Part shown: piece after piece, positions 23,643 through 23,826 of the stretch | Numbering within the stretch: the stretch's first letter is position 1 | How the letters are laid out: each line of letters opens with the position of its first letter | DNA from: Escherichia coli | GTDB taxonomy: Bacteria > Pseudomonadota > Gammaproteobacteria > Enterobacterales > Enterobacteriaceae | Length of the DNA: 64,000 bases | Strand: one strand, 5' to 3' | Assembly (NCBI RefSeq): GCF_003334765.1 | Contig: NZ_QOWT01000008.1 | Program-made: the position numbers and the translations under genes | The notes under the pieces: generated by a model | What the model saw: the letters and a program-made list of their open reading frames with translations, nothing else | Told to the model about the DNA's origin: nothing | Databases searched by the model: none

Positions 23643-23826
23643 GCCGGATGCGACGCTTGCCGCATCTTATCCAGCCTACGGGATTGCACATGTAGGGCGG
23701 ATAAGGCGTTCACGCCGCATCCGCCAGTGGCGCGGTGCAATTGCCGGATGCGACGCTTGCCGCGTCTTATCCAGCCTACGGGATTGCACATGTAGGGCGG
23801 ATAAGGCGTTTACGCCGCATCCGCCA
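23643..23826. repeat. BIME: two 84-bp units, each a pair of inverted REP palindromes, at 100-bp period
   Basis: Unit GCCGGATGCGACGCTTGCCGC-TCTTATCCAGCCTAC...GTAGGGCGGATAAGGCGTT-ACGCCGCATCCGCCA occurs twice with 2 mismatches. Confidence 0.8.

Follow-up and report, generated by a model that had tools for sequence, protein, structure and literature searches.

A two-unit BIME-2-type repeat array, REP178, in the eutG-eutH spacer of the Escherichia coli ethanolamine operon

The eut operon of Escherichia coli lies on the plus strand of the window, the 64,000-nucleotide stretch of DNA analyzed here, and extends from eutS to eutR at roughly 16.1 to 31.0 kb. Most of its junctions overlap or span at most 20 nt, and two spacers exceed 45 nt: the one between eutM and eutN, with 106 nt, and the one between eutG and eutH, which is the largest gap of the operon at 216 nt. 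The eutG-eutH spacer raises the question of what a repeated sequence is doing between two genes of one operon, and whether it sets their expression or is simply tolerated there. The first-pass annotation had described a tandem bacterial interspersed mosaic element (BIME) between eutG and eutH that fills the only large gap in the operon. Both statements were borne out by the analyses described below, in that the spacer is occupied by two inverted pairs of repetitive extragenic palindromes (REPs) with 97% identity, which together make up the element REP178.

Anatomy and identity of the array

The repeat was delimited by direct- and inverted-repeat searches. Tandem Repeats Finder reported an array at 23642-23826 with a period of 100, 1.9 copies, 97% matches and 0 indels. 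A direct-repeat search returned two 88-nt copies, at 23639-23726 and 23739-23826, that lie 100 nt apart and share 97% identity. An inverted-repeat search resolved each unit into an inverted pair of REP palindromes, arranged as an inverted REP (iREP), a 12-nt linker and a REP (Table 1). The 100-bp period is made up of 84 to 88 bp of repeated sequence and a 15- to 16-bp linker, GTGGCGCGGTGCAAT, between the pairs. Because this linker separates the REP pairs, the repeat period is 100 bp and not 84 bp; the 84-bp unit of the first-pass annotation is correct for the REP pair itself but not as the period.

Table 1. Features of the eutG-eutH junction in the window
Feature	Position	Strand	Evidence and remarks
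eutG (alcohol dehydrogenase)	22453..23640	+	ORF and RefSeq annotation of identical region; stop codon TAA at 23638-23640; adjoins array upstream
Unit 1 z2-like iREP, CTAC end	23643..23679	+	Inverted repeats; predicted hairpin, -10.8 kcal/mol
Unit 1 tail-to-tail linker (S-type), GGGATTGCACAT	23680..23691	+	Sequence, 12 nt
Unit 1 y-type REP (GTAG, imperfect palindrome, AA/GC internal mismatch)	23692..23725	+	Motif match with 1 mismatch; -20.9 kcal/mol, z = -4.8
Head-to-head linker between units, contains GTGGCGCGGTGCAAT	23726..23742	+	Once in the two-unit array
Unit 2 z2-like iREP	23743..23779	+	Inverted repeats; predicted hairpin, -16.6 kcal/mol, z = -2.9
Unit 2 y-type REP	23792..23825	+	Inverted repeats, motif; -20.9 kcal/mol, z = -4.3
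Rfam RF02564 (naRNA4/CssrE) match: y REP, head-to-head linker, z2-like iREP	23695..23776	+	71.8 bits
Nonrepeat spacer tail with eutH ribosome-binding site GGGAG, outside hairpins	23827..23856	+	Conserved across alleles
eutH (ethanolamine permease)	23857..25083	+	ORF, RefSeq; adjoins array downstream

A REP is defined as an imperfect palindrome of 30 to 40 nt with a conserved GTAG on the 5' side of the stem foot, and the hallmarks of the y type are GTAG and an AA/GC internal mismatch (PMC3333891). Matches to the REP core motif number 9 in the window, where 0.11 would be expected by chance, and four of the nine lie in the eutG-eutH spacer. GTAG begins the REPs at 23692 and 23792, and its complement CTAC closes the iREPs at 23679 and 23779. 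The array is extragenic, enclosed by the stop codon of eutG and the start codon of eutH, and multicopy, with a median of 7 matching places in each E. coli genome for an 816-nt query. The copies that begin with GTAG carry the y-type stem GGCGGAT/ATCCGCC, the AA/GC internal mismatch and a TTCA or TTTA loop. The inverted copies have a z2-type apex (GACGC-TTGCC-GCGTC), which agrees with the z2 portion of the naRNA4 consensus in Rfam, together with a y-like G:C pair in the lower stem. At that pair the eut copies differ from the canonical z2 REP, with a compensated G:C (GCCGGATG...CCGGC) in place of the canonical T:A (GCCTGATG...CAGGC). A CC|T cleavage site has been described for z iREPs (PMC3333891); because G:C replaces the canonical T:A, the eut z2-like REP does not contain this site (TGCC|TGAT).

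BIME-2 elements combine a z2 and a y REP with a short linker in tandem copies whose number varies between strains (PMC3333891). In the eut array, the z2-like and y REPs of each unit are joined tail to tail by the 12-nt S-type linker GGGATTGCACAT and not by the long IHF-binding L linker of BIME-1, and successive units are joined by 15-nt head-to-head linkers. Across alleles the tail-to-tail linker is either conserved or swapped for the variant AGGACGCACAT. The array is tandem, extragenic and transcribed, and its copy number varies between strains, with 2 units in the window and 1, 3, 4, 5 or about 6 elsewhere. Judged from these sequence features, the array would be classed as BIME-2-type, with the z2 assignment made by resemblance, and an older scheme might class it as an "atypical BIME." Both z2-like copies in the window strain contain a G-to-A change (CCAGCC) that produces a C-A mismatch. 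The C-A mismatch and the G-to-A change weaken the stem of the unit 1 iREP, the hairpin base of which lies 2 nt past the eutG stop codon, a point absent from the first-pass annotation.

The array matched the Rfam family RF02564 on the sense strand of the operon over model positions 1 to 77 of 77, above the gathering score of 59.5 bits; on the reverse strand the score was 52.7 bits, under the 59.5 threshold, and the scores in other alleles ranged from 66.6 to 77.5 bits. The Rfam naRNA4 model was built on REP325, a six-unit BIME-2 array between yjdM and yjdN. The eut array shares with REP325 the succession of y REP, head-to-head linker and z2 REP and the position between two cotranscribed genes, but REP325 has six units (12 hairpins) and the eut array has two units (4 hairpins).

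The array is already known as a cataloged element of E. coli K-12. REP178 is listed at MG1655 positions 2568140-2568322, between the tandem gene pair eutG and eutH, in the supplement of bioRxiv 10.64898/2026.03.23.713779, from which the name is taken; the MG1655 RefSeq record lists no repeat features. Many E. coli genomes, among them K-12 derivatives, match the window region with 100% identity, and MG1655 has a spacer of the same length, 216 nt. A full-text literature search returned no publication linking eutG/eutH to REPs. The start of eutG differs between the mechanical list of open reading frames (GTG at 22426, 404 amino acids) and RefSeq (ATG at 22453, 395 amino acids, with an 11-nt overlap with the end of eutJ). 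At the eutA-eutB junction (26484-26494), the window has 11 nt, and MG1655 has the 6.8-kb cryptic prophage CPZ-55 inserted at the same place; the 11-nt gap indicates that the window comes from an E. coli strain with an intact eut operon.

Alleles of the spacer in E. coli and other genera

Spacer alleles were collected from complete genomes of E. coli and, for related taxa, from a single genome of each species, and a census covered 5,426 complete E. coli genomes. This comparison, which the first-pass annotation had proposed as a check for copy-number variation, revealed arrays of 1 to about 6 units. Spacers of 116, 216, 315/316, 415 and 515 nt contain one unit (L002), two units (the window and MG1655), three units (B and C strains), four units (L008) and five units (L007), respectively. 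Longer arrays of 5 to 6 units with a truncated first REP are found in a 474-nt spacer of Escherichia sp. and a 578-nt spacer of E. coli. A 99-nt spacer in O157:H7 and O55:H7 contains a decayed single unit, and in E. coli MLI106K4 (L004) a different repeat replaces the BIME in a spacer of 169 nt. One-unit, two-unit or O157-type alleles are present in 4,268 of the 5,426 genomes, about 359 of which fall in the 90 to 95% identity band typical of the O157 type. The BoxC allele accounts for 306 of the 5,426 genomes, and the remainder after the other classes, approximately 852, has at least 3 units. The coverage counts merge 1-unit and 2-unit genomes by joining overlapping pieces, and the split between the two comes from evenly spaced row samples, which place approximately 33% of E. 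coli genomes in the 1-unit class and 40% in the 2-unit class.

The alleles differ in ways that bear on how copy number changes. The head-to-head linker recurs once per added unit in the 3-, 4- and 5-unit alleles, and the middle unit of the 3-unit allele is a hybrid. The 1-unit allele consists of the left part of window unit 1 and the right part of unit 2, and strain-specific variants are common to all units within an array. This pattern fits a model in which copy number would change through unequal recombination (crossing-over) or slippage between the 100-bp direct repeats. It is possible that TnpA-REP-mediated recombination, which has been demonstrated in vitro (PMC3333891), provides an alternative route.

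In other alleles the array is decayed or replaced. The single unit of O157:H7 (L003, 601-699) and O55:H7 has a 17-nt deletion that takes half of the first REP, along with several substitutions in the y REP, and the eut array is decaying in this lineage. The 169-nt allele (L004, 601-769) contains CCCTCGCCCCTTTGGGGAGAGGGTTAGGGTGAGGGG, identical to published copies of the BoxC/TMECO triplex motif, and a second BoxC/TMECO intrastrand-triplex motif in the opposite orientation. The pair sits at exactly the BIME site, immediately past the stop codon of eutG. A part of the DNA that separates its two motifs, GCGCCGGTGCAAAC, is similar to the head-to-head linker of the BIME, GCGCGGTGCAAT. All E. coli alleles, the BoxC allele included, share one and the same spacer tail, AATAAATAACAACTAACAGGGAGTAAAGGCG (counted from base 23826), and the last 31 nt before eutH are unchanged in every one of them, which indicates that the insertions all lie between the eutG stop codon and an ancestral short spacer. 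The 100-bp copy-number polymorphism and the BoxC replacement allele are thereby documented across E. coli.

Several genomes of Citrobacter, Yokenella, Pluralibacter, Buttiauxella, Hafnia and Morganella have a eutG-eutH spacer of 27 to 48 nt that contains the ribosome-binding site only and no REP, and the E. coli spacer tail corresponds to the entire 27- to 32-nt spacer of Citrobacter, Yokenella and Pluralibacter. Repeats of other types are found in the same spacer elsewhere: Salmonella enterica subsp. diarizonae has one species-specific REP in 67 nt, other Citrobacter and Pseudocitrobacter genomes have a head-to-head pair of species-specific REPs in 119 to 123 nt, and Klebsiella has species-specific REPs in 170 to 216 nt. 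The repeat is not part of the ancestral eut operon and is dispensable, being decayed, replaced or absent in many lineages. In a Pseudocitrobacter metagenome-assembled genome (L016), the 123-nt spacer upstream of eutH (2501) contains the unusual y variant of the Escherichia array (GGGCGG...CCGCC) and its head-to-head linker, and a different REP pair occupies the eutG-eutH site in the related species P. vendiensis. The unit shared by Pseudocitrobacter and Escherichia suggests common ancestry or transfer.

RNA folding and possible effects on eut expression

The transcribed array is predicted to form four separate hairpins, of which those of the y REPs are strong and those of the z2-like iREPs are weaker (Table 1). 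A single long fold of the entire spacer is possible as well, with a minimum free energy of -101.7 kcal/mol (z = -2.7). Across 28 distinct units, the single-REP hairpins were paired in 97.9% of cells and included two compensatory pairs, with changes from C:G to U:A in three units and from A:U to G:C in one. The long inter-REP hairpin was considered as the relevant fold and set aside, as it had zero compensatory pairs and was broken by the compensatory changes of the single-REP hairpins, although the units are 95% alike and the comparison is weak evidence either way. The separate hairpins are thus slightly favored over the long fold, and the covariation from which this is read could reflect propagation of the repeat rather than the needs of the mRNA. 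Within the spacer (23641-23856), scans found no sigma-70-like promoter and no site resembling an intrinsic terminator, and the y REPs are followed by AGUGGCG or AAUAAAU and not by a U run.

For W3110, whose eut operon is intact, relative protein abundances under induction have been published. Downstream of the array, the products reach 37 (EutB), 24 (EutC) and 39 (EutL), compared with 27, 10 and 7 for EutE, EutD and EutG upstream of it; on the same scale the remaining values are 100 for EutQ, 96 for EutM, 11 for EutS, 8 for EutK, 7 for EutP and 1 for EutN. Strong termination at the array is argued against by these values because the downstream Eut products are not depressed. The intercistronic REPs of malE-malF and hisJ-hisQ, classic mRNA stabilizers, reportedly keep 3' exonucleases from degrading the upstream message and raise its abundance relative to the downstream one. 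The eut array likewise places REP hairpins between two genes of a polycistronic operon but differs in that its downstream products are not depressed in the W3110 protein data.

REP325 is the best-characterized relative and the one with demonstrated operon-internal roles as a stabilizer and attenuator. It makes the transcript of the upstream gene yjdM more stable and attenuates the downstream yjdN about tenfold, in part by way of Rho, and its deletion changes the yjdM/yjdN ratio from approximately 35 to approximately 1 (bioRxiv 10.64898/2026.03.23.713779). Among 146 REP-containing tandem gene pairs, the median log ratio of upstream to downstream expression is 0.96, compared with -0.09 in controls, with wide scatter. 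Fragments of REP325 with 2 to 4 hairpins showed no Rho dependence, which was partial and was seen only with the full-length array; the table of an in vitro screen in the same work lists only weak antisense-strand peaks for Rho binding near REP178 (bioRxiv 10.64898/2026.03.23.713779). When a REP lies less than 16 nt from a stop codon, the gene ahead of it is reportedly translated less (Liang, Rudd and Deutscher 2015, as summarized in PMC12306157), and nrdA-nrdB is given there as an example in which a stop-codon-proximal REP lowers translation through ribosome stalling. The eut array is comparable to these elements in having a hairpin at 2 nt, inside the reported 15-nt limit, and in that EutG is among the least abundant Eut enzymes; it differs in that the stop-proximal hairpin is the weakest of the four in the window strain (-10.8 kcal/mol). 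The low level of EutG is consistent with a stop-codon-proximal effect, with the qualification that a protein level also reflects translation efficiency and protein stability.

The explanation that we consider probable, taken as a whole, is that REP178 is a BIME-2-type, two-unit array of a mobile repeat from the REP/BIME family of nonautonomous elements, tolerated in a permissive spacer and with at most modest local effects on the RNA. By analogy with the systems above, the hairpins of the array would halt 3'-to-5' exonucleases and thereby shield the eutS-to-eutG segment of the mRNA. At most a weak and context-dependent attenuation of transcription into eutHABCLKR would be expected. The first hairpin may disturb termination at the eutG stop codon and in this way lower EutG synthesis. 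Overall, the array probably has a small effect that ethanolamine use does not require, and the element would persist because this is the one eut spacer that tolerates insertions.

Competing explanations and other structured elements

The first-pass annotation had suggested that the element may set the ratio of upstream to downstream eut genes, a role that is plausible by analogy. In its strong form, this alternative holds that the array has been selected as a regulatory element that sets the stoichiometry of eutS-eutG against eutH-eutR, with copy number tuning the ratio strain by strain. The shift in the yjdM/yjdN ratio upon REP325 deletion and the upstream bias of REP-containing tandem pairs in general speak for such a role. 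Structured repeats are found at this junction in Escherichia, Salmonella, Citrobacter, Klebsiella and Pseudocitrobacter, with differing REP types and arrangements, and a BoxC pair occupies it in E. coli strains without the BIME. However, insertion tolerance alone may suffice for repeats to land recurrently in the eutG-eutH spacer, since the other junctions of the operon are mostly overlapping or short, and the alleles look like plain products of unequal crossing-over. Many genera manage with a repeat-free spacer of 27 to 48 nt, the O157:H7 copy has decayed, the spacer lacks an intrinsic terminator and the downstream proteins of W3110 are not depressed. Selection for such a role is considered unlikely.

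It is also unlikely that the array is a neutral passenger, repeat DNA that drifts without measurable effect on eut expression. Copy number ranges freely from 1 to about 6, and the array has decayed or been replaced in some lineages, as a passenger might. The y hairpins, however, are strong (-20.9 kcal/mol) and are kept by compensatory changes, though perhaps for repeat propagation, and one hairpin lies within the distance from a stop codon that is reported to affect translation.

A broader proposal, which appears distinctly improbable, is that the junction is selected to carry some structured repeat and that the strain-specific number of units (1 to about 6) would heritably set the level of EutG and the read-through into eutHABCLKR. 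If this were true, lineages such as O157:H7, B and K-12 would differ in their use of ethanolamine partly on account of this copy number. If copy number tunes the expression of EutG or of the downstream eut genes, the spacer alleles would form a natural allelic series for the study of REP arrays inside operons. That general question is already under study on REP325 and other loci; the finding reported here is real but ordinary, and its practical value is limited.

A role at the level of DNA, in which the BIME-2 array would be a strong site for gyrase and thereby relieve supercoiling midway through an induced operon of 14 kb, is very unlikely. Gyrase cleavage sites have been described as overrepresented in a subset of BIME-2 elements, preferentially at y REPs, and are not obligatory for the family. 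In Topo-seq table DS3, however, the interval 2567918-2568100 (182 bp) has 0 cleavage sites, in cultures grown without eut induction. The interval corresponds to REP178 shifted by a constant 222 bp, an offset that also applies to REP181 and REP182, and the treatments were ciprofloxacin, rifampicin plus ciprofloxacin, microcin B17 and oxolinic acid.

Still less probable is a function as a nucleoid-associated RNA like naRNA4, in which the transcribed REP pair would bind HU and help to condense the chromosome. Sequence and structure match the Rfam naRNA4 family above its threshold, and such a function was originally proposed in PMC4550694, but the Rfam model effectively describes any head-to-head pair of y and z2 REPs. 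REP325 itself was found to show no nucleoid compaction, stable HU-DNA-RNA ternary complex or REP-REP contacts in a study whose authors include the senior author of the original naRNA4 proposal (bioRxiv 10.64898/2026.03.23.713779). The nucleoid role is largely refuted for this type element.

Open reading frames run through the repeat at 23459-23791 (minus strand), 23641-23841 (plus strand) and 23676-23837 (minus strand). The idea that spacer frames such as the 66-codon frame at 23641-23841 encode real peptides or couple translation of eutG to eutH can be given almost no credence, as the plus-strand frame does start at an ATG that overlaps the eutG stop codon (TAAATG) and ends 15 nt before eutH in the 2-unit allele, but the 100-nt period is not a multiple of 3. 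Considered as a translational bridge, the TAAATG frame was rejected: it has 29, 66, 84, 99 or 117 codons depending on the allele, ends 15 to 260 nt before eutH and loses its start codon in the BoxC allele. Because their length and end point shift with copy number, the frames across 23459-23841 are translations of the repeat, as the first-pass annotation had recognized, and they should not be annotated as genes.

Several other structured elements were observed in the window. The 106-nt eutM-eutN gap (19808-19913) contains, at 19815-19840, a 10-bp G+C-rich hairpin with a T-rich tract behind it; this hairpin heads the terminator-like matches of the operon scan (-17.8 kcal/mol, z = -2.9). The hairpin directly follows eutM, whose product stands at 96 in the W3110 proteomics compared with 1 for EutN, and it may set the EutM/EutN ratio as an attenuator or as a barrier to decay. 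A canonical BIME-1 at 46541-46638 is composed of a z1 iREP, a linker of approximately 35 nt and a y REP, in contrast to the 12-nt linker of the eut units. Its linker matches Rfam ES036 (CssrF) at 46563-46605 on the minus strand (40.9 bits compared with a threshold of 37.6), and the ES036 family appears to model a BIME-1 linker. A REP at 10249-10310, after a 347-amino-acid open reading frame and near the 3' end of tktB, has doubled half-sites (GTAGGCCGGATAAGACGC twice and GCATCCGGCAATCA twice) and looks like the product of slippage inside a single REP. At 63690-64000 on the minus strand, Rfam identified two tRNA genes (63849-63921 and 63929-64000, the latter cut by the end of the window), which are preceded by a match to the RtT RNA at 63690-63815 (47.3 bits compared with a threshold of 45).
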